DNA of 64,000 nt from Bacteroidaceae bacterium (lineage in GTDB: Bacteria; Bacteroidota; Bacteroidia; Bacteroidales; Bacteroidaceae): the NCBI GenBank assembly GCA_017480685.1, contig JAFUSD010000002.1, forward strand, positions 14,287 to 78,286, read 5' to 3'. The position numbers and the translations under genes were made by a program. The notes beneath the pieces were generated by a model. It did no database searches. It worked only from the letters and a program-made list of their open reading frames with translations, and was not told where the DNA came from. The number at the start of each line of letters is the position of its first letter. Within the stretch, counting starts at the first letter, position 1. Below, piece after piece: positions 21,515 through 49,447 of the stretch.

Positions 21515-21663
21515 GTGTTTTTTTATGAAACAAAGGGTAGGAACTGCCAATTTTTAAGTACTTTTAATGTTTCGAGACACATAATATATATATAATGCGC
21601 GCCTTGGGCGGCATGTTCCCATGTCGGTGCTTGCTTGCAGGTGTCTGTAAGGGTGGCGTGAAA

Positions 21664-21743
21664 TGAGGATATCCTCACAGGCCCGCAAGGATATCCTCAC
21701 AGGCCTGCAAGGATATCGTCAACGCGTGTCGAGGATATCGTCG
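21664..21743 (-). repeat. 22-bp tandem array, GAGGATATCCTC-core family, ~3.5 units, reverse orientation
   Basis: Reverse complement reads gacgatatcctcgacacgcgtt / gacgatatccttgcaggcctgt / gaggatatccttgcgggcctgt / gaggatatcctca. Lies in the divergent rhomboid / rpsO intergenic region. Confidence 0.9.
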
Positions 21744-21890
21744 TTTTCCGTGCGGTGCGTCGGTGTCGTATGGCCGGGGCTTTGTGTTTTTTTGTGTCGT
21801 CAGAGGTCAAAAACATGATAAAACACGTGAAAAAGCTGGTTTTAGGGCAAAAAAACTCATATTTTTCGCTTCCGGTTGTGAAATTATTCG

Positions 21891-27165: not shown

Positions 27166-27245
27166 CACACTGAAAGCAGTACAATCACACTGAAAGCAAT
27201 ACAATCACACTGAAAGCAGTACAATCACACTGAAAGCAATAAATA
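27166..27245 (+). repeat. 20-bp tandem repeat x4 occupying the predicted 5' UTR of the DUF1599 gene
   Basis: cacactgaaagca(g/a)tacaat x4, with alternating g/a variants (units 1 and 3 are identical; 2 and 4 match until the last unit degenerates). Confidence 0.95.
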
Positions 27246-29753: not shown

Positions 29754-30320
29754 ATGAAACTATTGACAATCATCATCCTTACATTCATGGCAGCCCTCCC
29801 TGCTGCCATGAATGCACAGGTACGCTTCACCGACAAACTACAGCAGCAGGTGGAGGGAGAGGGAACCATAACCCTTGACCAAGACCCTCTGCTCACCGAC
29901 ATCCTAAATGGCGACATAGTGGTTCCGAGTAATATCGCAACCACCACAAAGGTGTCGGCCATCACCACCGAAACCAAGGTAAGACAAGATGCTGAAGAAA
30001 TGCACGGTAAGGTGTCGGGCATGCATCAGAAGGTGCGCGGCTATCGTGTACAAGTCTATTTTGGAGGCAACCAACGTGCCAACCAGACACAAGCACAGAA
30101 GGTTGGGACACGTGTCACAGGCATGTTTCCGGAACTGAGGGCATACACCACCTTCGAGTCGCCCCACTGGCGCTGCCGAGTAGGCGATTTCATCACATAC
30201 GACGATGCGTCGGCCTACATGCACAAAATCAAAGCCAGGGGCATTGCCGAGGCTATGGTGGTGAAAAGCGAGATATATGTCACCGCCGAACAACTGAAGA
30301 AAGAACAACAGAAGAAATAA
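29754..30320 (+). CDS. SPOR-domain protein
   Basis: 188-aa ORF with a signal peptide and a C-terminal SPOR-like [23 protein letters not shown]...[26 protein letters not shown]. Confidence 0.8.
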
Positions 30321-30907
30321 TGTATATCACTACTTTAGAGGGAAAGCAAGCCGAGATTGAAGCCTTGAAATCAAATGTGGAGACGATGCTCGACATTATT
30401 GGCGAAGACCGGCATCGTGAAGGATTGCAGCGCACCCCCGAACGTGTTGCAAAGAGCCTGCTTCAACTTGTGGGAGGATACAGCGCCGACCCCATCTCCG
30501 TTCTCAATTCGGCCAAATTCACCGAACAATATGCAAAGCCCGTCATAGTGAAGAACATTGAATTCTACTCATTGTGCGAGCATCACATCCTCCCATTCTT
30601 CGGGAAAGTACATATTGCCTATATCCCCGACGGATATATTGTTGGATTAAGCAAGATACCGCGTGTGGTCGACATCTTGTCACACCGCCTGCAGGTGCAG
30701 GAGCGCTTCACACGCGAGATATGCCAGTGCATACAAGGCGCCCTTCAGCCACGTGGTGTCATGGTGGCAGTAGAGGCGCAGCACATGTGTATGCAGATGA
30801 GGGGAATAGAGAAGCAAGGTGCTGTGACGGTCACTTACGACTATACCGGCGAATATCAAGACGAGTCCTTGCGCAACGAATTCCTCAAGGCACTAAAAGC
30901 CCTCTGA
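30320..30907 (+). CDS. folE: GTP cyclohydrolase I
   Basis: 195-aa [35 protein letters not shown] and LQVQERFT are canonical FolE motifs. The start overlaps the previous stop (TAATG). Confidence 0.95.
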
Positions 30908-30941
30908 TTAACACCCTCCCCCCCCCACACACACTACTATC

Positions 30942-33026
30942 ATGATATCTCCTGCTACCATAGAACGCATTCGCAGTGCTGCCAACATAGTCGATGTGGT
31001 GTCAGAATATGTCACCCTGCGACGTGCCGGCTCCAGTTTCCGTGGGCTCTGCCCCTTCCACGACGACACTACCCCCTCTTTCTCTGTATCTCCTGCACGT
31101 GGCATCTGTAAGTGCTTTGCTTGCGGCGAGGGGGGCGACGTTGTAGGCTTCATCATGAAGCAGGAACAGCTGGGATACTACGATGCCCTCAAGTTCCTTG
31201 CCAAGAAATATGGCATCGAAGTAGAGGAACGCGACCTCACGCCCGAGGAGCGGCGCTCGCAAAGTGAGCGCGAGAGCATGTATGCCGTCAACGAATGGGC
31301 CAGCCAATACTTCCACAACACACTGCTCAACACCGAGGAAGGGCAGACCATAGGCCTTGCCTATTGTCGGAGTCGTGGTTTTCGCGACGACATCATCAGC
31401 CGCTTCCGCCTCGGCTTTTCTCCTTCAACCTACGATGCAATGTCGGCCGCTGCCTTGAAAGAAGGTTATAAGGAGGAGTATCTTCTCAAGACCGGACTCT
31501 CCTACAAGCGCGAGGGCGGCTCCCTCTACGACAAATACCATGGCCGCGTCATCTTCCCGTGGTTCGGAATCAGCGGCAAGATCGTGGGATTTGGCGGCCG
31601 TGTGCTCGATGCACGCACCAAGGGTGTAAACCAGAAGTATATCAATTCGGCCGAGTCGGAGATATATCACAAAGCCAAAGAACTATACGGACTCTTCCAA
31701 GCCAAGAAAGCCATCGCTCGCGAACACAATGTTTTCATGGTCGAAGGCTACACCGATGTCATATCGATGCATCAGTGTGGCATTGAGAACGTGGTGGCCA
31801 ATTCGGGCACAGCTCTCAGCGAAGACCAAATCAGCATACTCCACCGCTTCACCAACAACATCACCCTGCTCTACGACGGCGATACAGCCGGACAGAAGGC
31901 TGCACTGCGCGGAACCGACATGCTCCTGGCACGAGGCATGCGCATCAAGATTCTCCTGCTGCCCGACGGCGACGACCCCGACTCCTTTGCACGCAAACAC
32001 AGTGCAGCCCAGTTCCGAGAGTATGTAGACACACATCAAGTCGACTTCATAACATTCAAGACCAACCTGCTCAAACACGACGCAGCCGACGACCCCGACC
32101 GCATGTCAGACCTCATACGCAGCATTGTGGAATCTATCGCGGTGGTGCCTGAGGAGATTGAGCGCTCGGTTTATGTGCACCGTTGCAGCGAGATACTTCA
32201 GGTCGACGAAAAGATGTTGCTTCGCGAAGTGGCACGCACCCGCAAACGCAACTGGGAGCAGAAGTTGCGCGAGAAAGAGAATGCCGAGAATCGTCGCCGG
32301 ATGCTCGATGAAAGCCAGGCTCCCACAAATTCCGCCACTGCCGGCGATGAACAGGGTGTCTCCCAAGATGTCTCCTCGTCATCTCCCGACAGTGACAGTG
32401 GTGGCAGTGCTCTGGGTCCTACCCATTCAGGGCAGCCGAAACCTGCTGGTGCAGTGGCATCAGTGGCAACCACAGATGCCGAGACTGTCGAAGAACGTAA
32501 ACTTCATGCCATAGAAGGACTTATACTCCAGCAGATTATACGATATCCACATGTGCAAATCAGCTCAACCGAGGCATCAGAAGCAGCCACCACCACCTTC
32601 ACTAAATATGTAGCCGACCAGTTGACCGCACTTTCAGTCACATTCCAGACACCCCTCTATCGCGACATGTTCGACGCCCTCTGCCAAGGCGGAGAAGCCG
32701 CCAGCAGCAACCCCGCGCAGTTTTTCCTCAACAGCAGCCAGCCCCGTTTCAACAGCGTGGCGGCAAGCATGCTGAGCGACCAGTACATGCTCTCGTCGCG
32801 CGATACCGACGAAGACCCGTCACTTTGTGTCGAACAGATGAAACGCCTGATGCTCGACTACAAAAACCTCATCATCACCATCGAGATAAAACGGGTGATG
32901 GAGCAACTCAACAGTCCCGAAGTGCTCGCCGACAGCCAGAAACTCATGTCGCTAATGCGCCGTCAGATGGAACTTACACAGCAGAAGCAACAACTGACAA
33001 ACCAAGGAAAGACATTGCCACACTGA
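30942..33026 (+). CDS. dnaG: DNA primase
   Basis: 694-aa ORF. Zinc ribbon CPFHDDTTPSFSVSPARGICKCFACGEGGD and TOPRIM region VFMVEGYTDVISMHQCG...LLYDGDTAGQKAA. Confidence 0.93.
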   Translation: MISPATIERIRSAANIVDVVSEYVTLRRAGSSFRGLCPFHDDTTPSFSVSPARGICKCFACGEGGDVVGFIMKQEQLGYYDALKFLAKKYGIEVEERDLTPEERRSQSERESMYAVNEWASQYFHNTLLNTEEGQTIGLAYCRSRGFRDDIISRFRLGFSPSTYDAMSAAALKEGYKEEYLLKTGLSYKREGGSLYDKYHGRVIFPWFGISGKIVGFGGRVLDARTKGVNQKYINSAESEIYHKAKELYGLFQAKKAIAREHNVFMVEGYTDVISMHQCGIENVVANSGTALSEDQISILHRFTNNITLLYDGDTAGQKAALRGTDMLLARGMRIKILLLPDGDDPDSFARKHSAAQFREYVDTHQVDFITFKTNLLKHDAADDPDRMSDLIRSIVESIAVVPEEIERSVYVHRCSEILQVDEKMLLREVARTRKRNWEQKLREKENAENRRRMLDESQAPTNSATAGDEQGVSQDVSSSSPDSDSGGSALGPTHSGQPKPAGAVASVATTDAETVEERKLHAIEGLILQQIIRYPHVQISSTEASEAATTTFTKYVADQLTALSVTFQTPLYRDMFDALCQGGEAASSNPAQFFLNSSQPRFNSVAASMLSDQYMLSSRDTDEDPSLCVEQMKRLMLDYKNLIITIEIKRVMEQLNSPEVLADSQKLMSLMRRQMELTQQKQQLTNQGKTLPH

Positions 33027-33132
33027 GCCCCTCTTCTCCCGCCCACAGCAATGCTTCGCCTCCTGGCAAAAGCTCTATAACGAATGTCGTTCAGGCGCGG
33101 CATACACCTTCTCTTATTTTTTTCGCGCGTGT

Positions 33133-33233
33133 GAGAATATCCTCGCGGGCTGTTGAGGATATCCTCGCGGGCTGTTGAGGATATCCTTGCGGGCTGTTGA
33201 GGATATCCTCGCAGTGTGCCAGAGGATATCGAT
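33133..33233 (+). repeat. 22-bp tandem array, GAGGATATCCTC-core family, ~4.5 units
   Basis: gagaatatcctcgcgggctgtt / gaggatatcctcgcgggctgtt / gaggatatccttgcgggctgtt / gaggatatcctcgcagtgtgcca / gaggatatcgat. Lies between the dnaG stop and the pyrE promoter. Confidence 0.95.
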
Positions 33234-33372
33234 TGTTGCAGTGTTTTCCGTATCATCAAACTGACCCTCCATTTTCTCTTCTTTATACACGACGTAACCA
33301 TCATAATGAGCAAAATCAGAGTGTTGTTGCAGTTTTATAGGACAAAAGGAGGGCGGAATGAAAACAAATTTG

Positions 33373-33380
33373 TATCTTTG
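33373..33380 (+). promoter_or_regulatory. -7 promoter box TATCTTTG upstream of pyrE
   Basis: aatttgTATCTTTGcacatc, 36 nt upstream of the pyrE ATG. Confidence 0.55.
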
Positions 33381-33415
33381 CACATCAAAATAAATCTATA
33401 AATCGTAAATAAAAT

Positions 33416-34057
33416 ATGATGACGACTACTCTCTCAACTATGTTTGCAGCCAAGTTGCTCGACGTGAAAGCCATAAAGCTGCAACCCGACGACCCGTTCA
33501 CATGGGCATCGGGCTGGAAATCTCCGTTCTATTGCGACAACCGCAAGACGCTGTCGTATCCTGCCCTGCGCTCGTTTGTCAAGACCGAACTCACCCGACT
33601 CGTCATGGAAGAGTTTCCCGAGGCAACAGCGGTGGCAGGCGTGGCAACCGGAGCCATAGCTCAAGGAGCACTGGTGGCCGACCAGCTGGGCATGCCTTTC
33701 GCCTACGTGCGCTCTAAACCCAAGGACCACGGAATGGGCAACCTCATCGAGGGCACACTGCCCGAAGGCTCGAAAGTAATCGTCGTTGAAGACCTCATAT
33801 CCACCGGCGGCAGCAGCCTGAAGGCCGTAGAGGCATTGCGTCAGGCAGGATTCGAGGTAGTAGGCATGGTGGCCAGCTACACCTACGGATTTCCCGTGGC
33901 AGAGCAGGCATTCAGCGATGCAAACGTACGCCTGGTGACACTCACCAACTACGAAGCAGTGCTCCAGGTAGCATTGCAGACGGGCTACATCACTGCCGAC
34001 CAGATACCGACTCTCAACGAGTGGCGCAGCAATCCGGCTGAGTGGAAGGGAAAGTAG
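33416..34057 (+). CDS. pyrE: Orotate phosphoribosyltransferase
   Basis: 213-aa ORF with the PRPP-binding loop VIVVEDLISTGGSS and N-terminal FTWASGWKSPFYCDNR. Confidence 0.93.
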   Translation: MMTTTLSTMFAAKLLDVKAIKLQPDDPFTWASGWKSPFYCDNRKTLSYPALRSFVKTELTRLVMEEFPEATAVAGVATGAIAQGALVADQLGMPFAYVRSKPKDHGMGNLIEGTLPEGSKVIVVEDLISTGGSSLKAVEALRQAGFEVVGMVASYTYGFPVAEQAFSDANVRLVTLTNYEAVLQVALQTGYITADQIPTLNEWRSNPAEWKGK

Positions 34058-34320
34058 AAGGGGAACCCCTCTCTTATCTCCCCCAAGGGGAGAGGATACC
34101 ATCCGGATGGATAAAGCTCCTCCCCTTCGGGGAGGCGGGGGAGAGGTTAAAGGGAATAGAAGGGGAGTTAAAGGGAAGTTAAAGGGACGAATGTCACCAT
34201 CCGGGGAGAAGACCCCCTCCCCCTGCGAGTACTCCCCCTTTCAGGTGGGAGAGTCCATCCGGATGGAAATAACCTCCCCTAACCCCTCCCAAGGAGGGGA
34301 ATTCCATCCGGATGGTAATA
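34058..34320. repeat. GC-rich mosaic hairpin element, family copy B (largest): three CCATCCGGATGG palindromes plus several G5/C5 stem-loops
   Basis: Contains ctcccc-caa-ggggag, cctcccc-ttcg-ggggagg and cccctcc-caa-ggagggg hairpins. ccatccggatgg appears at ~34094, ~34253 and ~34300. gttaaaggga occurs x3. It starts right at the pyrE stop. Confidence 0.85.
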
Positions 34321-34330
34321 ACCAAATAAT

Positions 34331-34415
34331 TAAATAGTACATAAATCGTAAATAGTAAATCGTCAAATCGTAAATAACAATAAATCGTAAAATCGTAAAT
34401 CCCATAGGTTCCTAT
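34331..34415. repeat. AAAT(C/A)GT heptamer tract (AT-rich family), about 9 units
   Basis: taaatagtacataaatcgtaaatagtaaatcgtcaaatcgtaaataacaataaatcgtaaaatcgtaaatcccatagg. Confidence 0.85.
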
Positions 34416-34437
34416 CCATTCCTAAAACAATAATACC

Positions 34438-37338
34438 ATGAAACGAACATGCATCTTGTTTGCAGCAATGTGTCTGTACACACTTGCATTTGCTGCACCC
34501 TCGGCGAACTATCAGCTCATCATCTCACTGACCGATGGTGGCAAGTTGACCTACCACCTAAGCGACCAGCCGAAACTGCTCTGGGAGGGCGACTCGCTCT
34601 ATGTGAGCGCAGTCGGAAACAAGATAGAAAGCATGACGCGCAAGGGCCTGCGCAGCCTGCAGTTCATAGCAAACGAGGAACCTGCACCAAGCCCCGACGA
34701 TGTGAACGGTGACGGACAAACCGACACGCAAGACGTGCTGTCGGTCTATGAATACATGCAGAGCGGCAACAGCCCGCAAGCCGAACGACTCGACGTGAAT
34801 GGCGACGGGACGGTCGATACACAGGATGTGCTGCACATCTACGAATCGATGATGACTGCCGAAGCACCGGCAAGGGCCGGCAATGCTCCCGACCAGATGG
34901 TAGTGGTCACCACCCGGGGTAACCTCGTGGCATACACCATCACGAGTGCTACGGCACTGAACTACAGCACAGCCACCGACACCATCACCATAGGCAACGG
35001 TGTGGAACTGGCTACATACGAATGTGGCGAGATAAAGCAGATATACTTCGACAACAAGGCATCGGTGGATGCCGACCCATACATCGTACCCACAACCGAC
35101 GACTACATCAACCCCAACCTCGTCGATCCTGAAAAGACAGCGTATGAAGTCGTACAACTCGACACCACGCTCTGTCGCGCACGCATAAGGTTTGAAGGCG
35201 ATGCGCCGCAGATGTATGTCGGTCAAATCTACATATCACACACCGACAGCATCCACCTGGGCATGTATCTGCTCACCTTCGACCCCGTCGACAGCCATCA
35301 GGTCGATATCCGCTACCGCCCGGCTCAACTGCAAGAGATGGTGTATAACTGCGAAATAACCCTGAGCTCGTTCCCCTGTGGCGACAGCTACTTCGACAGC
35401 AACGAGGCCTACGTGAAGTTGCGCGACACACGCCGGCGTGAGGAAGGTGTCAACTTCGACCAGTTTGAATCGCTCGAACCGGTGAAGGTGATAAAACAAG
35501 TGGCCGACATATTCAAAAACAGCGGTTTCAGCTTCGGCAGCGACTACTCTACAGAACTGGGAGTGGAACTGAAAGTGCTTGTGGGCGAACCCAAGACACA
35601 AGAAAACTGGATACGAGAAATAGCATCAAAACTGGAATACGTAGGACTCGTCTTCAGAGGCAAGCAGACGATAACCAGCAAAAGCAAAGTCAAGATCGAA
35701 GCAGGAATCGAACTGCCCGACATAGACAGGCAGATATCGCCCGACCTGTTCACACACCATCAGTATTTCCAGGTGGGGCCGGCTCCGGTCGTGCTTTCGT
35801 ATGATGCATCGATATGGGCTATGCTGAAATCCGAACTGAAAATACAAATGATGTCGGCAGTGACCGTGACCGAAGGATGCGAAATAGCAATCGGAGCCGA
35901 ATACGATGCAGCAAAAGGTACCCTCTCGCCCATCAACAGCGTGAAATACACATACAAAATCGATGACAATCAAATCGATGTACTCAACGGACACGCACAC
36001 TTCCGCGCATCGCCCTATCTGAGGCTCAACCTGTATCTGTATCTGGTGCTCGGATTCCATATCGACATCATGCCATTCCTCGACGGGACATTCGACGGCA
36101 TGATGTACAACAACAAACCATTCTGGCAAGGCAGCATCGACATGGGACTCAACTTCCGTGCAGGATTCTTTGTAGAAGGACCACGATTCAACTTCGTAAA
36201 GCGCGACGACAACAGCAAGATGCCTATCGACCAGATATCTTACACCTCGCCCGACCTCATACGCAAAAACATAATTCACTATCCCGACACAATGGTCGAT
36301 ATCGACTCGCTGAAACGTGAATATGCCGCCTACGACACCAGCAGCAGTTTCCGTTTCAAGACCTACGGACGAATACACCCCGAGAGCAATATAAGCAAAT
36401 TGTGGGAATCGACCGGCAGCTCATCGGTGAACCAGCAGTGCTTGAGCGACTTCCCATACGAAGAGTGGCAGAGCGTGAACCCCGAAGACCTCGTAATCGA
36501 GACCGGAGGTGATGAGGGTGATGATGGCGACTACAATGTTATATACACCAAGGTACGCAACCGTATGCCTGCCAAGATACGGGCTATGTTGCCACAACTG
36601 CCACATGCACCCATCATCAGGGTGAAACGCAAGATAGAACCATCAAGCCAACTGAGGCCTATAGGTCCGTCGTGGGCTACACAAGCTGGCGATGATGGCA
36701 TAATCAACACCACATTTACCTCGCCAGTACCGCTCGGATACCGCACCGTGCTGCGCACCAGCCTGCTCGACGGAGAAGGCAACCCGCTGCTCGATATGGA
36801 CCGCGAAATGCCGTGGGAAATCCAGAACTACGATGCCGCCATTTCCGGCACAATGGGATTCTCGGGCACCATAGAATATCGCAACGGAGGAAAGCACATA
36901 CACGAAGTGGAGCACATCGATGGAGGTACGCTGGAATACACGTGGAACGGCACCGACACCCACATGAAGATGTCGATACAAGGTATGCAGATGGAATACA
37001 CCTACAAAGGCGAATTCATCTGCCCGATAGCCGCCATAATGGGCTACAACGTAAACCACAACCCTGGAGTCTTCATCAGCGACATACAAGAGTATGACGT
37101 GATGCGATGGATGAACAAAGAACTGGGAGTGGAATTCCCTGGCATCAGTTTCGGCGAGACATTCTATCTGGGACATGATTGCAAGACCCTGCGCGAGGTG
37201 ACCCCCGAAGGAAGCGGCACGACGGTGATGTATCAAAACCTCATCTTAAGGCTGCTCTCGACGGAAGGCGATATGAACGTGACGAGCCTCAAGATATACG
37301 ACGAGATAGAAAACCCGATAACCATTACCCGACATTGA
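34438..37338 (+). CDS. Large secreted protein of unknown function with an N-proximal dockerin-type duplicated Ca-binding repeat
   Basis: 966-aa ORF with signal peptide MKRTCILFAAMCLYTLAFA. DVNGDGQTDTQDVLSVYEYM and DVNGDGTVDTQDVLHIYESM lie 11 residues apart (nt ~34696-34860). I recognise no domain in the rest. Confidence 0.7.
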   Translation: MKRTCILFAAMCLYTLAFAAPSANYQLIISLTDGGKLTYHLSDQPKLLWEGDSLYVSAVGNKIESMTRKGLRSLQFIANEEPAPSPDDVNGDGQTDTQDVLSVYEYMQSGNSPQAERLDVNGDGTVDTQDVLHIYESMMTAEAPARAGNAPDQMVVVTTRGNLVAYTITSATALNYSTATDTITIGNGVELATYECGEIKQIYFDNKASVDADPYIVPTTDDYINPNLVDPEKTAYEVVQLDTTLCRARIRFEGDAPQMYVGQIYISHTDSIHLGMYLLTFDPVDSHQVDIRYRPAQLQEMVYNCEITLSSFPCGDSYFDSNEAYVKLRDTRRREEGVNFDQFESLEPVKVIKQVADIFKNSGFSFGSDYSTELGVELKVLVGEPKTQENWIREIASKLEYVGLVFRGKQTITSKSKVKIEAGIELPDIDRQISPDLFTHHQYFQVGPAPVVLSYDASIWAMLKSELKIQMMSAVTVTEGCEIAIGAEYDAAKGTLSPINSVKYTYKIDDNQIDVLNGHAHFRASPYLRLNLYLYLVLGFHIDIMPFLDGTFDGMMYNNKPFWQGSIDMGLNFRAGFFVEGPRFNFVKRDDNSKMPIDQISYTSPDLIRKNIIHYPDTMVDIDSLKREYAAYDTSSSFRFKTYGRIHPESNISKLWESTGSSSVNQQCLSDFPYEEWQSVNPEDLVIETGGDEGDDGDYNVIYTKVRNRMPAKIRAMLPQLPHAPIIRVKRKIEPSSQLRPIGPSWATQAGDDGIINTTFTSPVPLGYRTVLRTSLLDGEGNPLLDMDREMPWEIQNYDAAISGTMGFSGTIEYRNGGKHIHEVEHIDGGTLEYTWNGTDTHMKMSIQGMQMEYTYKGEFICPIAAIMGYNVNHNPGVFISDIQEYDVMRWMNKELGVEFPGISFGETFYLGHDCKTLREVTPEGSGTTVMYQNLILRLLSTEGDMNVTSLKIYDEIENPITITRH

Positions 37339-37346
37339 TTGACATA

Positions 37347-37386
37347 AAATCAGGGCTGATGCCAAAAGCGGTATCAGCCCTGATTT
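37347..37386. terminator. Bidirectional intrinsic terminator between convergent genes
   Basis: aaatcagggctgat-(11 nt)-atcagccctgattt with A/T runs on both sides. Confidence 0.75.
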
Positions 37387-37433
37387 GTCATGATGAGGAA
37401 TGTATAGCAGTCGGTATTATAGCAATGCAATGA

Positions 37434-38591
<1,158 letters not shown>

Positions 38592-38677
38592 TTAAGTTAA
38601 TACTTTCTTATAATATCACAGTTATTTTATAATATCGAGGATTTGTCGGTATGAACAAACGACGGGTCATCGTGCTG

Positions 38678-38685
38678 CAAAATTA
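38678..38685 (-). promoter_or_regulatory. -7 promoter box TAATTTTG upstream of the 37434-38579 esterase
   Basis: The minus strand reads aaattacTAATTTTGcagcac about 100 nt upstream of the ATG at 38579. Confidence 0.4.
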
Positions 38686-38833
38686 GTAATTTATTTTTAA
38701 TGTCATGCCAATATATCAAAATAAATCTGCAAAAAGAGCACGAGATATGCAAGAAATCAAAGTATGTGGATGAAACAAAAGGCTCATTTTGCAAATAATG
38801 CGTGAAAAACTTCTTCATACGAAAAGAAGGTAG

Positions 38834-38841
38834 TATCTTTG
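38834..38841 (+). promoter_or_regulatory. -7 promoter box TATCTTTG upstream of the 38888 lipoprotein gene
   Basis: aggtagTATCTTTGcatag, 47 nt upstream of the ATG. Confidence 0.5.
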
Positions 38842-38887
38842 CATAGTCAAAAACAATGACAGAAAAACCACGACAGCCATTAAGAAT

Positions 38888-39658
38888 ATGAACAAGACAG
38901 CATATACAGCACTTGCCATTATTTGTGTATCGGCTTTGATGATAGCATGCAATGGTACGGGTAGCAGGGAAGATGGGAATATGAGTGGGTCGGTAATCAT
39001 CGACACACTGCCCGGGGTGCGTATCTATACCCCGCAGTTCAGCAGTATCGACCTACGATGCGGCACCATGCCCGACACGTCGGAGCGGAACGTGGTGTTC
39101 TGTGCCGAAGCAGCGTTTACTCATGCCCTGCTCGACACATTCAGCCACTCAAACATCGACGGCAACCACGTGAGCGGCGGACGATGGTATGAGGGTGCTA
39201 CATGCATCGAGACCTCTGAGCGCGTGGGCAACACCGGAGGCTTTGTGTGGTATGACAACCATTTCGAGTTTCTGCCCGACACGGCAGCAGCCGAGGCAGC
39301 ACTACGACGGGCAGCCGAGGCGGGTGGCATGGGGTTCTGCCAGGAATACATCATTCACGAAGGCCACTACCAACCCAATACCCGCACCGAAAACCCACGG
39401 TTCAACCGCGTGGAGATGTATCGTGTGCTGGCACTCATCGCCGACACACTGCGCATCGTTGAGAACACGGAGCCCATGCACTTCTCCGACTTCGTGCCCC
39501 TGCTGCTGAAAGCCAGGGTGATGGAAGCACTGTATATGGACATGGGTGCCGGATGGAATCACTCGTGGTATCGAACCGCTGACGGCACCGTACACGAGAT
39601 TCACCCCACCGACTTCAAGTCGCAGTATTGCACCAACTGGATTACATTCTACGAATAA
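38888..39658 (+). CDS. Hypothetical lipoprotein; its last 12 codons lie inside the left copy of the 42-bp direct repeat
   Basis: 256-aa ORF with lipobox ALMIAC. I recognise no family. Confidence 0.6.
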   Translation: MNKTAYTALAIICVSALMIACNGTGSREDGNMSGSVIIDTLPGVRIYTPQFSSIDLRCGTMPDTSERNVVFCAEAAFTHALLDTFSHSNIDGNHVSGGRWYEGATCIETSERVGNTGGFVWYDNHFEFLPDTAAAEAALRRAAEAGGMGFCQEYIIHEGHYQPNTRTENPRFNRVEMYRVLALIADTLRIVENTEPMHFSDFVPLLLKARVMEALYMDMGAGWNHSWYRTADGTVHEIHPTDFKSQYCTNWITFYE

Positions 39659-39659
39659 A
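39618..39659 (+). repeat. Left copy of the perfect 42-bp direct repeat bounding the AT-rich insertion
   Basis: agtcgcagtattgcaccaactggattacattctacgaataaa is identical to 43102-43143. Confidence 0.95.
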
Positions 39660-39812
39660 TTTTATTAAATGAGAAGAAAACGTGTTCATCAGATTATCAA
39701 TATTGTAGATTAGAAAATATTTATAATATTATTTGGTAGTATTTTTATTAACTCCTCCAAATATGAAGAATTATCGAACCAGATACGCATACATTGGACT
39801 ATTATCGGACTT

Positions 39813-41279
39813 ATGATATATGCTGGATTTTGGGGCATAAAGAACTTAAACAGTAATAATGTGGTGCATCTTTCGATAAATAGAATTTTAAATTCAATAT
39901 ATTTTATTGGCTGGCTGGAGGTTCTGTATGTTATACTACAGATATTTGAAATACTACCTAAACACAGTCATTTCTTTGTATTTACAGGAAACTTCGATAA
40001 TCCCGCTATCGTTGCAATGCTTCTCTCTTTTTGCATACCCATCGGCTTATATCGTATAATGCATGCCAAAAGTACTATGTATAAATCAATATGGATAAAT
40101 ACCACCATCATTATATTTATTGTAATTATAATATCAGGAAGTCGTACTGGTATTATATCATCAATAATATCTACATTATATTTAAAGAAACAAATAAGAC
40201 CAAATAAGTTGTAACGTAGAAGATTTACATTATGGATAATTACTATATTAGCATTTATCATACTCTTAATTCTCTATACAATTAAAAAAGATTCAGCTAT
40301 TGGGAGATTATATATTTGGCGCATATCTTTGCAAATGATTACAGACAAACCATTATTAGGGTTTGGATTAGATGGATTTGCATCTCACTTTATGTGGTAT
40401 CAATCAAAATTCTTATCGGCACATCCGAATTCTCCATTTTTGCTCTTAGCAGATAATATCACTAATCCATTTAATGAATTCCTTTATATTGGTATAAGTT
40501 ATGGAACGATTGGTTTAATATGCACTATCATTTTTTTTACATTAATGTGGCAACAAATATCACTAATTAAATGTAAACAAAAGAAAATCCTATCAGCATT
40601 GTACCTTATTCTCATGTGTTGGTGTATGTTTTCGTATCCCCTGCATGTTCCTTTTGTGTGGATTATTATTTTACTTATTACGATTACAATTTTGAGCCGA
40701 CTTCATCATAAATCATTGATTGTCATTTCACATACAGTTATAATAACAAGTATAATTGTAATACTTTCATCTATATATTCAGTGAGGTTCAGAGCCGAAT
40801 GGGGTGTCGTGCAAGCCCATTCACTTTTTGGACATGAAGATACTGCCATATTAGATTTTAAGCGATTATATAAACATCTTTCGAAAGACGGTAGATTCCT
40901 ATATAATTACGGAGCAGAACTACACATTGCTGAACGTTATGAAGAAAGCAAAAATATACTAAACGAATGTGCTTCATTATTAAATGACTATAATCTTCAT
41001 ATGATAATGGGAGATGATTATATGCAGATTTGTAAGTCTGACTCTGCAATTCTTCATTACAGCATTGCATCAAATATGGTACCAAACAGGTTGCTTCCTC
41101 TGTACCAAATTATGAATATATATTCAAATCAAGGAGACTCTATTAATGCCAAGAAGATTGCATTGATTATCCTAAATAAACGTGTAAAAATCAGATCAAA
41201 TGTAACAGATTTTATAATCAGGAAAGCAATTGAAGTACAATCCGATGATACAACAATAAGAGAAGAACAGTACATTTAA
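39813..41279 (+). pseudogene. O-antigen-ligase/Wzy_C-like membrane protein with a C-terminal TPR-like region, interrupted by a single in-frame TAA (40212-40214)
   Basis: ORFs 39813-40214 and 40329-41279 are in the same frame, and the 114 nt between them contain no further stop (RRRFTLWIITILAFIILLILYTIKKDSAIGRLYIWRISLQ). The downstream part reads DKPLLGFGLDGFASHF...NPFNEFLYIGISYG. A possible additional frameshifted N-terminus begins at the ATG 39763. Confidence 0.65.
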
Positions 41280-41320
41280 TAAATATTACACAATGTGTTT
41301 GTGGTTTTAAAAAAAAAGTG

Positions 41321-41328
41321 TATCTTTG
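41321..41328 (+). promoter_or_regulatory. -7 promoter box TATCTTTG inside the islet, upstream of the 41353 gene
   Basis: aaagtgTATCTTTGcacatc, 25 nt upstream of the ATG. Confidence 0.5.
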
Positions 41329-41352
41329 CACATCAAATAAACAAATTGTCAC

Positions 41353-42006
41353 ATGAACTCTATTAATAAATTAAAATTATTATCATATACCGTATCAATA
41401 ATAACCTCTGTAATTATCACATATTTTGCATGCTCTTCTGATGAAGAAGATGATGATATGTATTATTATAGTCTCAACATTAATGACATTATACCACGTA
41501 CACGCAGTACAGTAGGAGATGCTTTCATATCAAATGATATTCCTACAAGAGACTATTGCGCAATTTGGTGTATTTGGCAACTATGTGGTGGTTCTGACTA
41601 TTATCAAGGTAAGGTTGAAGCAAAAGCTGGTGAACTACTTGGGTGGACAAGAGAAAAACACAGGCCACTTACCCAACCAGAAATATCCATATTAGCAGCT
41701 GCATTTAATAAACCAAGCAACTGGTATCCGAATACAGAGGTAACTAATAATAATGACACAATACCGAATGGAAATGCAATTAAGGCTGTTTATGACTTAA
41801 TAAATAATAATAATATAAAGGCAGATAAAGATAGTACATATGTTTTACCTTACGAGATATTAGTAGTTTCTAATTTTAATCATTGCCAAATAGGGAAAAA
41901 GATAAACTTCTTCACTGGAACGATTTATATATTTTCAAACGAACATAAAAATGGTAAATCAAAGTACGACATACCTCTATCCACAGTTACAGACGTATAT
42001 CTTTAA
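41353..42006 (+). CDS. Hypothetical lipoprotein with a Cys...His arrangement (possible cysteine peptidase/amidase fold)
   Basis: 217-aa ORF. Lipobox ITYFAC followed by acidic SSDEEDDD. Cys cluster RDYCAIWCIWQLCGG (C69/C73/C78) and NFNHCQIG (H177). Confidence 0.6.
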   Translation: MNSINKLKLLSYTVSIITSVIITYFACSSDEEDDDMYYYSLNINDIIPRTRSTVGDAFISNDIPTRDYCAIWCIWQLCGGSDYYQGKVEAKAGELLGWTREKHRPLTQPEISILAAAFNKPSNWYPNTEVTNNNDTIPNGNAIKAVYDLINNNNIKADKDSTYVLPYEILVVSNFNHCQIGKKINFFTGTIYIFSNEHKNGKSKYDIPLSTVTDVYL

Positions 42007-42008
42007 AT

Positions 42009-43073
42009 ATGACATTAACAATGACCGAAATACACATAAGACACAAATTCACCATGATGCTATACCTCGCAATGACATCTATGGGATGGGCACAGAATGT
42101 TGTTCCTACATATCAGCTTGATAGCATTATAAGGAACGATGACCTCAACCTCAAGAAGATTGCATATCGCTACGACAACATCGGAAACGTGACCATGAAG
42201 AAATACTACATTAAAAGGAATAATGTCTGGTTGCTATGCGACAGTACGGTATATACATACATAGGGAATAACAAAACTAGTGCCACACTCTATGGTATTG
42301 AAGAAAATGAGGTTGTACCATTTAGTCTGACAGAATACTATTATAATAATGGTGTGCTATATAAAGAAACCAAATATAGTTTTGCAGCATCTACATGGCT
42401 TCCTATACAAGAAAAAGACTATGAATACACCGATGATATGATAAGCATAGAAAGGACCTACTCATTGGAGAAAGGACGCAAATCATTAGTCACTACAACC
42501 CAGTATTCATACAACGACGGATTGCTAAGAAGCAAACAAACCGACCATCATTTAGGTGATGGAACCACAAACCCATGCATGCGATGGATCTATACATGGA
42601 GTGATGGAACCACTCCTAAATGTACACAAATAAAGATATGTGAATACAACCTGCATCAATGGCAAATATCAGAGCAAGACACATTTATATACGATGAAGC
42701 AGGTGTACTAATCGGGAAGTATGACGAAGTTGGATGGGGAAATGGTGTAATCGATTTCATACAGAAAACAGAATTCTGCTATGACATATCAGGCAATATC
42801 ATAAGTATACGATATTATAATAAGACGGGCGAAAATGCATGGCAGCCAGTGTACGACACACATTTTATGTATAATAGCAACATTCCACTTGACAATATTG
42901 TAAACACCACACTTGTGCGGGAACTATGGGGAATAGATATCGGTATACCAACGCATTCCTTTGCGATACAACACTGCAACAACATGCCGACAGCTATAGT
43001 GACTCTTGATGCTCCTCATCCCGACAACATAGATGAATACACACAATATTATTACTCGATATTAGAAGAGTAA
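42009..43073 (+). CDS. Small YD/RHS-repeat-like secreted protein
   Basis: 354-aa ORF. The signal peptide probably starts at MMLYLAMTSMGWAQ (ATG ~42054). Recurring YD-type repeats: IAYRYDNIGNV, EYYYNNGVLYKE, YSYNDGLLRS, FIYDEAGVLIGKY, FCYDISGNIISIRYY. Confidence 0.6.
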   Translation: MTLTMTEIHIRHKFTMMLYLAMTSMGWAQNVVPTYQLDSIIRNDDLNLKKIAYRYDNIGNVTMKKYYIKRNNVWLLCDSTVYTYIGNNKTSATLYGIEENEVVPFSLTEYYYNNGVLYKETKYSFAASTWLPIQEKDYEYTDDMISIERTYSLEKGRKSLVTTTQYSYNDGLLRSKQTDHHLGDGTTNPCMRWIYTWSDGTTPKCTQIKICEYNLHQWQISEQDTFIYDEAGVLIGKYDEVGWGNGVIDFIQKTEFCYDISGNIISIRYYNKTGENAWQPVYDTHFMYNSNIPLDNIVNTTLVRELWGIDIGIPTHSFAIQHCNNMPTAIVTLDAPHPDNIDEYTQYYYSILEE

Positions 43074-43101
43074 CATTAGATTAATACTATATATTCATCT
43101 T

Positions 43102-43143
43102 AGTCGCAGTATTGCACCAACTGGATTACATTCTACGAATAAA
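43102..43143 (+). repeat. Right copy of the perfect 42-bp direct repeat
   Basis: Identical to 39618-39659. Non-coding here. Confidence 0.95.
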
Positions 43144-43169
43144 CAAAAGACAAGATAAGACGATAAACA

Positions 43170-43640
43170 ATGAAGACTGAAAGCAACGTAAAGACAGTGA
43201 TGGCACCGCAAGATGTGGTGTACGCACGGCTGTCGGACCTCACGAACGTGAGCAAAGTGCGCGAACGACTCGACGACCCTGACTTCCAGCAGCAGTTGAG
43301 CCAGCAGATGCCCGACGGACACAAGATCGACGAGATACGCGAGCGGCTCGACTCTATGCAGTTTGATGCCGACTCGGTGAGCATGGATGTGCCGCCAATT
43401 GGCAACATAGCAATACGCATCATAGAGCGCGAACCCGAGAAGTGCATCAAGTTCGAATCGGTCAACTCGCCAATACACTTCTACCTGTGGATTCAACTGC
43501 TGCCGCTGACCGACACATCGAGCAAGATGCGCCTCACGGTAGATGCCGACGTGAACCCATTCATGCGTATGATGGTAGAGAAACCGCTGAAGGAAGGAGT
43601 GGAGAAGCTGGCCGACATGCTGGCAAGCCTGCCGTATTAA
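43170..43640 (+). CDS. SRPBCC-like (START/polyketide-cyclase fold) small protein, tentative
   Basis: 156-aa ORF. Its length and the N-terminal pattern (VKTVMAPQDVVYARLSDLTN) resemble SRPBCC ligand-binding proteins. The assignment is weak. Confidence 0.5.
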   Translation: MKTESNVKTVMAPQDVVYARLSDLTNVSKVRERLDDPDFQQQLSQQMPDGHKIDEIRERLDSMQFDADSVSMDVPPIGNIAIRIIEREPEKCIKFESVNSPIHFYLWIQLLPLTDTSSKMRLTVDADVNPFMRMMVEKPLKEGVEKLADMLASLPY

Positions 43641-43657
43641 AGAAAAGAGGAAAAAAG

Positions 43658-43800
43658 ACCCTCTCCCCAACCCTCCCCCGTCATCCCCCTGCGGGGGATT
43701 GAGGGGGGACAAATCGGTTCTTCTCCCCCTCGCACTCCCCCAGGGGAGAGGGGGAGGGAGGCCATCCAAATGAATCTCCTCATAAAATGGGGGAGAGATG
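43658..43800. repeat. GC-rich mosaic hairpin element, family copy C
   Basis: Contains atccccc-tgc-gggggat and ctcccc-cag-gggag hairpins, a degenerate ccatccaaatga half-palindrome, and aaatgggggag shared with copy A. It lies right after the SRPBCC stop. Confidence 0.75.
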
Positions 43801-43847
43801 TATGAAAGAGAGAGAGGGTGCGTAATTAATTATTCATTATATTAGGA

Positions 43848-45182
43848 ATGAACAAACTTTGGACAAAAAACGTTGAAATGACCGATGAAATCGAGCGTTT
43901 CACCGTAGGTCGCGACCGCGAGATGGACCTCTATCTCGCACCTTACGACGTGCTTGGCTCGATGGCTCACATCACGATGCTCGAGTCGATAGGGCTGCTG
44001 AGCAAATCGGAACTCGACCAACTGCTCGTGGAACTGAAAACAATCTACGACACCTGCGTGCGCGGGGAGTTCAAGATAGAGGACGGAGTGGAGGATGTGC
44101 ACTCGCAAGTGGAGCTGATGCTCACACGCCGGCTGGGCGATGTGGGAAAAAAGATCCACTCGGGACGCTCAAGGAACGACCAGGTGCTCGTCGACCTCAA
44201 ACTCTTCATCCGCCAACAACTGCGTGAAATTGTGGAACTGACCGACACGCTGTTCCGCCACCTCATCAAGCGGAGCGAAGAATGTAAAGACATACTCATG
44301 CCAGGATATACCCACCTGCAGGTTGCCATGCCCTCATCGTTTGGATTGTGGTTTGGAGCGTATGCTGAAAGCCTTGTCGACGATATGCAATACCTGCTGG
44401 CTGCATGGCGCATCACCAACCGCAACCCGCTGGGCTCGGCTGCAGGATATGGCAGCTCGTTCCCGCTCAACCGACAGATGACCACCGACCTGCTGGGGTT
44501 CGACTCGATGGACTACAATGTGGTGTATGCACAGATGGGTCGTGGCAAGACTGAGCGCAACGTGGCCTTCTCGCTCGCAAGCGTGGCAGGCACACTGGCC
44601 AAGTTGGCGTTCGATGCATGTATGTTCAGCAGTCAGAACTTCGCATTCGTACACCTGCCCGACAACTGCACCACCGGGTCGAGCATCATGCCCCACAAGA
44701 AAAACCCCGACGTCTTTGAGCTCACACGTGCCAAATGCAACAAACTGCAGGCACTGCCACAGACCGTCATGATGATAATGAACAACCTGCCGTCGGGCTA
44801 CTTCCGCGACCTGCAAATCATAAAGGAGACATTCCTCCCTGCATTCGACGAACTGAAGGACTGCCTGCGCATGGCTTCCTACATCATCGAGCGTATGGAC
44901 GTGAACCCCGACATACTGTCCAACCCGATATACGACAACATGTTCTCCGTGGAGGAGGTGAACCGCCTGGCAGCAGCCGGAATGCCCTTCCGCGATGCAT
45001 ACCGCAAGGTGGGGCTCGACATCGAGGCTCATCAGTTCACGCCCGACAAGAACATACACCATACCCACGAGGGTAGCATAGGCAACCTGTGCAACGACCG
45101 CATAGCGCTACTTATGGACAATATCCTCGGCCAGTTCAACTTCAGTAAAGTAGACAATGCAATACAGACGCTCAGGAAATAG
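43848..45182 (+). CDS. argH: Argininosuccinate lyase
   Basis: 444-aa ORF. Fumarate-lyase signature GSSIMPHKKNPD, plus SGRSRNDQV and YTHLQVAMP. Confidence 0.95.
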   Translation: MNKLWTKNVEMTDEIERFTVGRDREMDLYLAPYDVLGSMAHITMLESIGLLSKSELDQLLVELKTIYDTCVRGEFKIEDGVEDVHSQVELMLTRRLGDVGKKIHSGRSRNDQVLVDLKLFIRQQLREIVELTDTLFRHLIKRSEECKDILMPGYTHLQVAMPSSFGLWFGAYAESLVDDMQYLLAAWRITNRNPLGSAAGYGSSFPLNRQMTTDLLGFDSMDYNVVYAQMGRGKTERNVAFSLASVAGTLAKLAFDACMFSSQNFAFVHLPDNCTTGSSIMPHKKNPDVFELTRAKCNKLQALPQTVMMIMNNLPSGYFRDLQIIKETFLPAFDELKDCLRMASYIIERMDVNPDILSNPIYDNMFSVEEVNRLAAAGMPFRDAYRKVGLDIEAHQFTPDKNIHHTHEGSIGNLCNDRIALLMDNILGQFNFSKVDNAIQTLRK

Positions 45183-46128
45183 TGGCATACAGTTGCCGGT
45201 GTTGTCGCTCGGATTATGGCACAACTTCGGAGCCGACGACCCCTACGACGTGGCCCGCGATATGGTGCTCACGGCTTTCGACCGTGGCATCTGCCATTTC
45301 GATTTGGCCAACAACTACGGCCCGCCACCCGGAAGTGCAGAGCTTACATTCGGGCGCATCATGAAAGAAGAACTACGCAGCCACCGCGACGAGATGTTCA
45401 TTTCGTCGAAGGCAGGTCACGACATGTGGCCTGGGGTATATGGCACTGGTTCGTCGCGCAAGAACATCATTGCATCATGCAACCAGAGCCTGCAGCGAAC
45501 CGGTCTTGACTATTTCGACGTGTTTTATTCTCACCGCTACGATTCCTCGACCCCAATCGAAGAGACCATGCAGGCACTTGTAGATTTGGTGCATCAGGGC
45601 AAGGCATTGTATGTAGGTATTTCGAAATATCCTGCCGAGCAGCAGCTGGAGGCCTACAACTACCTGCTGCGCGAACATGTGCCATGTCTGCTCAGCCAGT
45701 ATCGCTGTTCGCTGTTCGACCTCAAAGCACGCCGCGACAACTTTGCCGGAGCCGTGGGTGCCGGAAGCGGAATCATCTGCTTCTCGCCCTTGGCGCAAGG
45801 CTTGCTCACCGGCAAGTATTCTGACTGCATACCGGCCGACAGCCGTGTGGCAAAACACAGTCCGTTTCTCACCCAGTCGCACATTACACCCCAACGCATC
45901 GAAGCAGCCCGAAAGCTCGGTGAAATCGCAAAAAAACGAAATCAGACGCTTGCTCAGATGGCGCTGGCATGGATACTGGCCGACGAGCGGGTGACATCGG
46001 TCATAATGGGAACATCAAGTGTAAAGCAATTGGAAAGCAATATCGAAGCATTAGATAATACTGTTTTCAGCAATGAAGAGCTTAAAACCATCGATGAAAT
46101 CGTTAATAATCCGCAAATATCGTTCTGA
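45157..46128 (+). CDS. Aldo/keto reductase (YghZ / L-glyceraldehyde-3-phosphate reductase-like)
   Basis: 323-aa ORF. MQYRRSGNSGIQLPVLSLGLWHNFG and FDLANNYG are typical AKR motifs. It overlaps the argH end by 26 nt. Confidence 0.9.
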   Translation: MQYRRSGNSGIQLPVLSLGLWHNFGADDPYDVARDMVLTAFDRGICHFDLANNYGPPPGSAELTFGRIMKEELRSHRDEMFISSKAGHDMWPGVYGTGSSRKNIIASCNQSLQRTGLDYFDVFYSHRYDSSTPIEETMQALVDLVHQGKALYVGISKYPAEQQLEAYNYLLREHVPCLLSQYRCSLFDLKARRDNFAGAVGAGSGIICFSPLAQGLLTGKYSDCIPADSRVAKHSPFLTQSHITPQRIEAARKLGEIAKKRNQTLAQMALAWILADERVTSVIMGTSSVKQLESNIEALDNTVFSNEELKTIDEIVNNPQISF

Positions 46129-48176: not shown

Positions 48177-48298
48177 AAGGATATCCTCAACGCACCGCAA
48201 GGATATCCTCAACACACCGCAAGGATATCCTCAACGCACCGCAAGGATATCCTCAATGCATTGCAAGGATATCCTCAACGCACCGCAAGGATATCCTC
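48177..48298 (-). repeat. 22-bp tandem array, GAGGATATCCTC-core family, 5.5 units (largest), reverse orientation
   Basis: The forward strand reads aaggatatcctcaacgcaccgc x5.5, with cores at 48177, 48199, 48221, 48243, 48265 and 48287. The reverse complement is gaggatatccttgcggtgcgtt. It starts 1 nt after the flippase stop codon. Confidence 0.95.
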
Positions 48299-48348
48299 AC
48301 GTTTACTCATACCACCTTACAGCCGGTGTCGTTTCATAAGAATCGTGT

Positions 48349-49429: not shown

Positions 49430-49447
49430 TGTAGTGAGATTATTTAG

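Follow-up and report, generated by a model that had tools for sequence, protein, structure and literature searches.

A GC-rich mosaic of dispersed palindromic repeats downstream of pyrE in a member of the Bacteroidaceae

The gene pyrE, which encodes orotate phosphoribosyltransferase (213 aa), is located at positions 33416–34057 on the forward strand of a 64,000-nt stretch of DNA from a Bacteroidaceae bacterium (assembly GCA_017480685.1, contig JAFUSD010000002.1, positions 14,287–78,286), referred to as the window. The assignment is supported by a listed open reading frame (ORF), a match to the Pfam family Pribosyltran, and the orthologues of the gene. Its stop codon TAG (34055–34057) is followed directly by a GC-rich block that extends from 34058 to approximately 34320 and would form the 3' untranslated region (UTR) of pyrE, its upstream gene. 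The origin and significance of this block, which consists of short palindromic repeats that recur at many other loci, are the subject of the present analysis.

A first-pass annotation, made from the sequence alone, had read the block as an array of very short hairpins, palindromes, and a small repeat positioned immediately after the stop codon of pyrE, and this reading is confirmed. The block contains three perfect hairpins with a run of C in one arm and a run of G in the other, namely CTCCCC-CAA-GGGGAG (34078–34092), CCTCCCC-TTC-GGGGAGG (34119–34135), and CCCCTCC-CAA-GGAGGGG (34283–34299). The perfect 12-bp palindrome CCATCCGGATGG is present three times (34099–34110, 34255–34266, and 34304–34315) and is accompanied by a half-site at 34197–34204; a fourth match is found at 5847 if one mismatch is allowed. 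Only 0.15 matches would be expected per window, and none of 100 shuffled sequences reached the observed number of four. The small repeat, GTTAAAGGGA, occurs three times with a period of 11 nt (34146–34187). Folding of the entire block yields −126 kcal/mol (z = −3.0 relative to shuffled sequences); the corresponding values are −47.2 kcal/mol (z = −2.95) for the region 34064–34148 and −35.7 kcal/mol (z = −5.67) for the region 34255–34315. Across the 64-kb window, hairpins of the C-run/G-run type are concentrated in three blocks (5822–5935, 34058–34320, and 43658–43800), each of which begins 1–18 nt past a stop codon and on the strand of the upstream gene.

Rather than being a single element, the block after pyrE combines four or more dispersed modules in a mosaic. 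Their limits were derived from repeat analysis and from the points where contigs from other genomic contexts cease to match. The first module (M1; 34064–34148, forward strand) is an inverted doublet of 85 nt, recognized by its inverted repeat, its folding, and its presence as a discrete piece elsewhere. Its left unit (34064–34104) comprises the tail ACCCCTCTC, the linker TTAT, and the hairpin CTCCCC-CAA-GGGGAG; its right unit (34105–34148) is of the same type but inverted, and both are joined head to head in the palindrome at 34099–34110, where CCATCC abuts GGATGG. In RNA and DNA contigs, M1 is found with other flanks as a discrete piece that ends at 34064 and 34148. The second module (M2; 34146–34195, forward strand) is an 11-nt periodic array of three copies of (G)TTAAAGGGA(A), ending in CGAATGTCA; it is likewise dispersed, with a depth approximately 40 times that of the flank, and occurs also at three other loci (L002, L155, and L275).

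The third module (M3; 34197–34266, forward strand) has the structure CCATCCGG-GGAGAAGACCCCCTCCCCCTGCGAGTACTCCCCCTTTCAGGTGGGAGAGT-CCATCCGGATGG and folds with −33.9 kcal/mol (z = −2.8). The same 70 nt follow unrelated genes at five other loci (L142, L087, L236, L251, and L315), and the corresponding contig pieces span 34197–34260 and 34197–34268. The core of the fourth module (M4; 34271–34303, forward strand) consists of the tail CCTCCCC, the linker TAA, and the hairpin CCCCTCC-CAA-GGAGGGG. It is the deepest module in the DNA contigs (approximately 90 times the flank) and includes, at 34273–34294, the 22-mer CCTCCCCTAACCCCTCCCAAGG, which recurs across phyla. As indicated by the inverted repeat and by folding, the palindromes at 34255–34266 and 34304–34315 form a hairpin that closes around M4 (34255–34315, forward strand), and together they define a 49-nt repeat unit (CCATCCGGATGG, AAATAA, M4, and AATT, in this order) that is arranged in tandem at locus L229. 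The AT-rich tail of the intergenic cassette (34316–34402, forward strand; AATAACCAAATAATTAAATAGTACATAAATCGTAAATAGTAAATCG onward) itself belongs to the dispersed repeats, with approximately 70 near-identical nucleotides (34316–34376) after a different gene at locus L102.

The modules share a common design. The basic unit of approximately 30 nt comprises a C-rich tail of 7–10 nt, a linker of 2–4 nt, and a hairpin of 6–8 bp in which the C-tract comes first and the G-tract second; in 2.1 Mb of sequence around the copies, 577 hairpins are C-first and only 48 are G-first. A doublet of 60–125 nt arises from two such units in inverted orientation, and its structure is closed by the paired tails. Because the units of this lineage end in CCATCC/GGATGG, the 12-bp palindromes arise where units abut, and the palindrome CCATCCGGATGG, which had initially been regarded as an independent brick of the block, is instead the head-to-head junction or the tail of hairpin units.

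The two other blocks of the window are related to the one after pyrE. The first (5822–5935, reverse strand) directly adjoins the stop codon that ends the gene at 5936–7246 and consists of GCCCCCTCTTATCCCCC-AAAA-GGGGG followed by two units with CCATCCRGATAG. The other (43657–43790, forward strand) begins 17 nt past the stop codon of the gene at 43170–43640 and contains GACCCTCTCCCCAACCCTCCCCC, nested hairpins, and one CCATCC half-site; an orthologous copy is kept at locus L002. The first-pass annotation had considered the three blocks to be copies of one element. They do share bricks, but they are different mosaics with only some of the bricks in common.

As had been anticipated, the short palindromic bricks have many further copies beyond the window, which is evident both from the depth of the modules and from their recurrence after unrelated genes in the closest metagenome-assembled genomes (MAGs). 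In four DNA metagenomes in which this genome is represented, depth increases from 6–20 at the single-copy 3' end of pyrE to 200–1860 in the modules (25–100 times), and approximately 100 distinct contigs per run carry modules; as related species contribute, these copy numbers are upper bounds per genome. The multiplicity was derived also from related MAGs. Five of the eight contigs encoding an identical pyrE protein end within the block, as is typical of assemblies, which break at repeats, and the three contigs that cross it carry the block nearly unchanged.

In the two genomes closest to this one (CAMVDC01 and CAMHPM01; 95% identity in pyrE), the modules are reordered or recombined after unrelated genes, and one related MAG alone accounts for at least 15 loci with the 22-mer of M4. 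M1 follows pyrE at locus L001 but is missing at locus L002, where the 11-nt array follows pyrE directly, which is consistent with M1 being an insertion. At the latter locus (CAMHPM01, 3630–3720), the array downstream of pyrE is joined to the last approximately 60 codons of a 966-aa ORF with a dockerin domain, a junction that represents a deletion of approximately 3 kb relative to positions 34058–37200 of the window. Among 78 orthologous loci, 10 hold some member of the family after pyrE, and eight species of Prevotella share a doublet at this position, with conserved arms and a divergent spacer.

The distribution of the copies relative to genes is strongly biased. Gene calls for the counts of placement and of copies within ORFs were obtained with our own crude caller based on codon usage, which was checked on the window, and the individual cases cited here were confirmed by Pfam or BLAST. 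An ORF end within −35 to +11 nt of the 5' end of the element is found on the same strand in 39 cases and on the opposite strand in eight, and 12 genes use the TAA of the element itself as their stop codon. Of 71 intergenic copies of M4, 64 are located between tandem, six between convergent, and one between divergent genes, whereas approximately 46, 10, and 14 would be predicted from intergenic length (chi-square approximately 21, by our own arithmetic). The ORFs that are flanked by elements on both sides (n = 30) all have housekeeping functions or belong to operons, among them hisA, hisF, hisIE, dapA, tsaD, ompH, and gcvH. There is no sign of a target-site duplication among 119 copies, whose longest shared flank word averages 2.73 nt compared with 2.67 nt in shuffled pairs, and positions −4 to −1, just upstream of the element, show no more than an enrichment in purines.

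The family is not confined to extragenic sites. Between 20% and 30% of the copies, approximately, are embedded in long ORFs that look coding on either side of the element (23 of 117 copies of M4 and 40 of 125 copies of another brick), mostly in one reading frame, in which M4 is read as ASPNPSQGG(G/E) and the other brick as APLLSPQGGK. Doublets encode approximately 28 aa (e.g., ASPNPSQGGGLGSAMTENPLLGRGQGEA). The host genes encode valyl-tRNA synthetase (valS), methionine synthase (metH), MutS2, the large subunit of glutamate synthase (gltB), RarA, a DegT aminotransferase, an M23 peptidase, glycosidases of families GH2 and GH92, and a giant phage protein; Leptolyngbya PCC 6406, an isolate, likewise carries an in-frame copy in its HsdM methylase. 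Two orthologues of valyl-tRNA synthetase with 62% identity align with a 32-aa gap exactly at the element, and in RarA, the element-encoded peptide is located in a variable linker, judging from an alignment with the RarA of E. coli (PDB 3PVS). The most extensive case is the GltB of a Prevotellaceae MAG (L135), which contains approximately seven element-derived segments (e.g., TPDPSPRGEGSS, STPLAHGRGVGGEA, and APLLSPQGGK) but is otherwise conserved. A search of a protein database with the element-encoded peptides, based on a word index that performs poorly on low-complexity sequence, returned one candidate. None of the genes in the window holds a copy, and all three of its blocks are extragenic.

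The family extends well beyond this genome. A pattern derived from the first block of the window (CCCTCTTATCYCCCC, a short gap, and GGGG) matches at least 116 loci, mostly in Prevotellaceae, where a frequent form is GCCCCCCTC-TTAT-CCCCCC-AA-GGGGGG, followed at some distance by CTCCCCC-TTG-GGGGGAG-GTT-GGAGGGGGC. The exact 22-mer CCTCCCCTAACCCCTCCCAAGG is present at at least 115 loci, compared with 0.07 expected by chance, whereas no match was obtained with the reversed 22-mer, a control of equal composition and with identical homopolymer runs. Among the listed loci with the 22-mer, approximately 100 belong to Bacteroidota (Prevotellaceae, Tannerella, Paludibacter, Marinilabilia, Flavobacteriaceae, and Chitinophagales); others include Pyrinomonadaceae and Blastocatellia (Acidobacteriota), Ignavibacteriota, two cyanobacteria, and one genome of Chloroflexota. 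Cultured isolates are among the carriers, and the copies have unrelated flanks and sharp boundaries. Phages were rejected as the main carriers, with the 22-mer in only 5 of 2.9 million viral contigs. A distant-mode BLAST search of the block against plasmid records gave no match, although the query may have been hidden by filtering for low complexity.

Several observations from other phyla stand beside these results. A many-copy doublet of the same architecture is present in one Pseudomonadota MAG, where five copies (L101, L152, L165, L174, and L180) show a conserved gene start followed by CCCCCCTCTTATCCCCCCGCAAGCGGGGGGAAGCGCTCCCTCCCTGCTTGCGGGGAGGGTCGGGGAGGGG. The pattern from the first block of the window matched also a separate element of Desulfobacterales and their relatives, TATAACACATG-CCCCCCCTCTTATCCCCCCC-AAAA-GGGGGGAGGAGGATAAAAGGCAT..GCGGTTCCTGCT, with flanks that are conserved across genera (L090, L094, L099, L113, L117, L133, L136, L141, L143, L149, L195, and L196). 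This element of sulfate reducers, for which Rfam gave no match (L133), possibly represents a leader or a small RNA. On one MAG contig (L023, 4760–4800), a hairpin element is broken up by a run of approximately 35 G, probably a poly-G artefact of sequencing or assembly. Pairs of the palindrome CCATCCGGATGG were found at 24 loci (L322–L345), many of them in unrelated tandem repeats of other phyla, including those of Frankia, Nocardiopsis, Sphingomonadales, Ravibacter, Pirellulaceae, and others. In viral contigs, pairs of a control palindrome scored one match and pairs of CCATCCGGATGG none, and the cross-phylum pairs are therefore taken as background.

The window contains a variety of other repeats, and minisatellites are unusually abundant between the genes of this genome. 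A second intergenic family consists of tandem arrays (three to six units) of the 22-nt unit GAGGATATCCTCGCGGGCTGTT, which includes the 12-bp palindrome GAGGATATCCTC. Arrays are located at five loci in the 64 kb, on either strand (7480–7603, 21643–21744, 33111–33234, 48177–48300, and 57797–57942), and the spacing of two helical turns suggests an array of protein-binding sites. Additional intergenic arrays of short period are present at 10758–10907 (25 nt), 27166–27241 (20 nt), 49442–49508 (23 nt), and 61829–61960 (22 nt). Short AT-rich repeats of the type TAAATCGTAAATAG lie just 5' of gene starts (15031–15102, 33391–33412, 34316–34402, 51858–51894, and 61926–61971). In four metatranscriptome assemblies, no part of the region is covered more deeply than positions 34341–34375 (up to 987), which occur there next to dozens of different flanking sequences.

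Upstream of pyrE, the sequence TATCTTTG (33373–33380, forward strand) lies 36 nt before the ATG and matches the −7 promoter box of Bacteroidetes (TAnnTTTG); it is probably the pyrE promoter and is mentioned here as context. The longer motif AAAAnAAAnnTGTATCTTTGCACATCAAA, located upstream of three genes (33361–33389, 38822–38850, and 41309–41337), contains TTTG and TATCTTTG, which match the −33 and −7 promoter elements of Bacteroidetes. An exact 42-nt duplicate is found at the ends of two genes (39618–39659 and 43102–43143). The surrounding region (38580–43170), with an intergenic GC content of 25–31% compared with 51% for the window, may be a horizontally acquired segment.

Returning to the block after pyrE, the evidence leaves hardly any doubt that it is a non-coding mosaic of dispersed palindromic repeats. 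Five other explanations were weighed. The palindromes CCATCCGGATGG and the phased 11-nt repeats might instead function at the level of DNA, by offering an array of sites to a DNA-binding dimer such as a regulator, a methylase, or a protein of the nucleoid. The excess of perfect palindromes over the 0.15 expected, the recurrence of palindrome pairs in the closest MAGs, and the other palindrome arrays with 22-nt spacing in the window would fit such a role, which we nevertheless consider unlikely: the palindrome is accounted for by the structure of the hairpin units, as their junction or tail, its sequence decays freely in relatives (e.g., to CCATCCGGAAGG and CCGTCCGGATGG), the cross-phylum pairs do not exceed a plausible background, and no candidate binding protein was found.

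It is similarly improbable, and slightly more so, that the hairpins are terminators or attenuators that evolved in the host specifically for pyrE and two other genes and are not mobile repeats. The location right after stop codons and the high stability of the hairpins would agree with such a function, as would the RNA contigs: the modules of the block are present in four metatranscriptome assemblies, in which the 5' part of the downstream gene is almost uncovered. The low coverage is weak evidence for a block of read-through, as expression is low in this region. The region also lacks canonical terminators, with 14 terminator-like sites at positions 30000–46000 compared with 14.3 expected, and no site on the plus strand of the block. 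However, no hairpin in the block is followed by a run of T, and the hairpins are not terminators of the U-tract type. The same sharp-edged modules are encountered at dozens of unrelated loci, including operons and ORFs, where termination would be harmful.

Two further explanations are both very unlikely. One is a gene for a structured non-coding RNA or a cis-regulatory RNA, such as a small RNA derived from the 3' UTR. Although folding is strong and the sequence occurs in metatranscriptome contigs, the modules change from locus to locus, covariation is absent, and no Rfam family reached the gathering threshold (no matches in the window, nothing relevant there with an E-value cutoff, and no relevant matches at 20 related loci; the best match below threshold was Whalefall-1, with 18.4 bits compared with a threshold of 37 bits). 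The other invokes non-B structures that modulate replication or transcription, either a G-quadruplex (GGGAGGGGTTAGGGGAGG) on the G strand or an i-motif or mirror-repeat triplex on the C strand. The tail of M4 and the 5' arm of its hairpin indeed form a perfect homopyrimidine mirror repeat (CCCTCCCC-TAA-CCCCTCCC), the complement of which has four G-tracts, and the sequence is more conserved than a hairpin would demand; however, the proposal derives purely from sequence, the four-tract pattern is missing from the other bricks of the family, and the competing hairpin is very stable.

That the 76-aa ORF at 34107–34337 encodes a small low-complexity protein can be practically dismissed: it has an ATG start, and the same bricks are read in frame in real proteins elsewhere, but no gene was called in the block in any of three independent assemblies spanning it (L197, L198, and L200), neither of the two ORFs of the block is present as an exact sequence in a collection of 15 billion proteins, none of four ORFs across the block has a Pfam match, and the reading frame runs across four independent modules. 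The view of the first-pass annotation that the block is non-coding is thereby upheld.

The dispersed palindromic repeats of the block resemble several known systems. Repetitive extragenic palindromes (REPs), their bacterial interspersed mosaic elements (BIMEs), and REPINs are likewise short imperfect palindromes with an unpaired 5' tail that form inverted doublets and mosaics with other motifs. They reach tens of copies or more per genome, persist for long periods at orthologous sites, are located after stop codons and between the genes of operons but rarely in divergent regions, and cause no target-site duplication. The units of approximately 30 nt and their many copies agree also with the size and copy number of REPs and REPINs associated with tyrosine transposases (RAYTs). 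However, the 5' tag GT[AG]G or CGTC of such elements is absent; the tails are CCTCCCC, CCCCCCTC, or ACCCCTCTC, and the stems are pure tracts of C and G. Moreover, REPs are lineage-specific, whereas one brick of the present family is identical across phyla, and many of its copies lie in genes. The REPs published for Bacteroidetes are linked to RAYT subclasses 2.4 and 2.6 (PMC6006769), and none of those listed (table S1 of the same study) resembles the present tails; the sequences are unrelated. The analogy with REP/BIME drawn by the first-pass annotation is thus supported for architecture (inverted doublets, mosaic) and for placement (3' ends, between operon genes, and 1 of 71 copies in divergent regions compared with 14 predicted), whereas membership in the REP/RAYT family is not supported; the family works like REP/BIME.

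The in-frame copies recall the Rickettsia palindromic elements (RPEs), which are inserted in frame into unrelated housekeeping genes, where they add a peptide segment, and which occur also in intergenic regions (PMC10969869). In-frame insertion into unrelated genes is a property of the present family but not of the copies in the window. RPEs are set apart by size (approximately 100–150 bp, compared with units of approximately 30 nt and doublets of approximately 84 nt), base composition, and host taxa; they are restricted to Rickettsia, which is intracellular and has a reduced genome, whereas the present family occurs in free-living and gut bacteria of several phyla.

Bacterial MITEs, short for transposable elements of the miniature inverted-repeat type, such as Correia, ERIC, the QMITE of Coxiella, and BrickBuilt/MITE239 of P. 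gingivalis (PMC10969869, PMC5896051, PMC4596501), are similarly non-autonomous, intergenic, hairpin-forming, and co-transcribed with their neighbors, and some are located in 3' UTRs or in frame. The present elements are much smaller and lack target-site duplications. Their doublets have inverted arms, but neither a bracketed transposase nor a matching parent insertion sequence was seen in 2.13 Mb, and BrickBuilt differs in having 23-bp direct repeats instead of C/G hairpins. The small dispersed repeats of Nostoc and other cyanobacteria, reportedly named mobile nanoelements by Elhai and colleagues in 2008, are said to measure 21–27 nt, to be nested, arranged in tandem, and associated with hairpins, and to have been reported from cyanobacteria only and not as in-frame insertions. 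The present units share the size class of less than 30 nt, the nested and tandem arrangement, and the association with hairpins, and the 22-mer is found as tandem half-units in a Nostocales genome (L223), but the sequences are not known to match. Intrinsic terminators have a GC-rich stem-loop directly 3' of a stop codon but differ by their U-tract, and several stacked hairpins or the same sequence within operons and ORFs are features of the present family. Resemblances to integron attC sites, DnaA boxes, and Tn5 ends were dropped, as each involved only 5–7 shared bases. The first-pass annotation knew of no equivalent class in Bacteroidota, and none was found in the searchable literature, mostly outside subscription journals, including searches with DNA and peptide strings.

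In our interpretation, which is likely to be correct as a whole, the 3' flank of pyrE was built up from mobile palindromic repeats that influence the transcript of the gene. There are good grounds for regarding the repeats as selfish DNA that is or was mobile. The block would have accreted from at least four members of a family of tiny palindromes, which probably spread via a single-stranded hairpin intermediate of the IS200/RAYT type, moved by some enzyme. Selection would leave copies only at harmless sites, namely the 3' ends of genes, intercistronic gaps, and tolerant loops of proteins. Once co-transcribed, the stem-loops would probably block 3'-to-5' exonucleases or attenuate read-through, by analogy with REP/BIME. 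That the repeats stabilise or attenuate the pyrE transcript itself is possible rather than probable.

A number of observations weigh against this interpretation. The six frames of 2.13 Mb around approximately 250 copies gave no credible hit to the HUH-Y1 motif (HUH...Y), and neither PF01797 (Y1_Tnp) nor any other transposase was found by Pfam among the 30 ORFs flanked by elements; six ORFs from the motif scan were discarded as spurious and antisense. The gene of the RAYT/TnpA-REP type proposed by the first-pass annotation thus did not materialize in the sequence scanned, where several RAYTs would roughly have been expected, given 50–100 sites per genome with one or two of them next to a RAYT gene. 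The block is near-identical in all conspecific contigs, with no recent transposition seen, and orthologous copies persist across species, so that the pattern could also reflect old events followed by recombination; the copy numbers from metagenomes, to which related species contribute, are upper bounds. With respect to an effect on the transcript, the U-tract is missing, and covariation in the orthologous doublets is close to zero, with some pairs broken, and thus does not indicate selection for RNA structure. The RNA evidence comes from assembled contigs (rumen metatranscriptomes and runs covering the Hoylesella locus), from which transcript ends cannot be read.

A wider proposal, which falls just short of being probable, is that the repeats represent an undescribed superfamily of palindromes of approximately 30 nt that have been kept identical to the letter in Bacteroidota, Acidobacteriota, Cyanobacteria, Chloroflexota, and Ignavibacteriota. 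They would multiply without a nearby transposase or target-site duplication, prefer the sense strand after stop codons, and enter essential genes in frame in the manner of RPEs, but in free-living and gut bacteria, perhaps being tolerated chiefly where ribosomes ignore the Shine-Dalgarno signal. The G-rich arms contain a perfect Shine-Dalgarno motif (AAGGAGG), and the ribosomes of Bacteroidia are known to ignore this signal (PMC7797042, PMC3155529), which may explain why the elements are tolerated in this class.

If this is true, Bacteroidota, including the dominant Prevotellaceae of rumen and gut, have their own abundant miniature palindromic repeats, which cause metagenome assemblies to break and give shape to 3' UTRs as well as to intercistronic regions. 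The in-frame copies add peptide loops to core enzymes, which matters for alignments, for phylogenies based on signature indels, and for structure prediction. That a 22-mer is identical in every letter across phyla, without an associated transposase in view, would point either to an unrecognised mobilising activity or to a strong sequence-specific constraint, and either is open to testing, since there are carriers in culture (Hoylesella timonensis, Marinilabilia salmonicolor, Arenibacter troitsensis, Maribacter algarum, and Leptolyngbya sp. PCC 6406). The family would then provide, beside Rickettsia, a second and independent system for understanding how selfish palindromes enter proteins.

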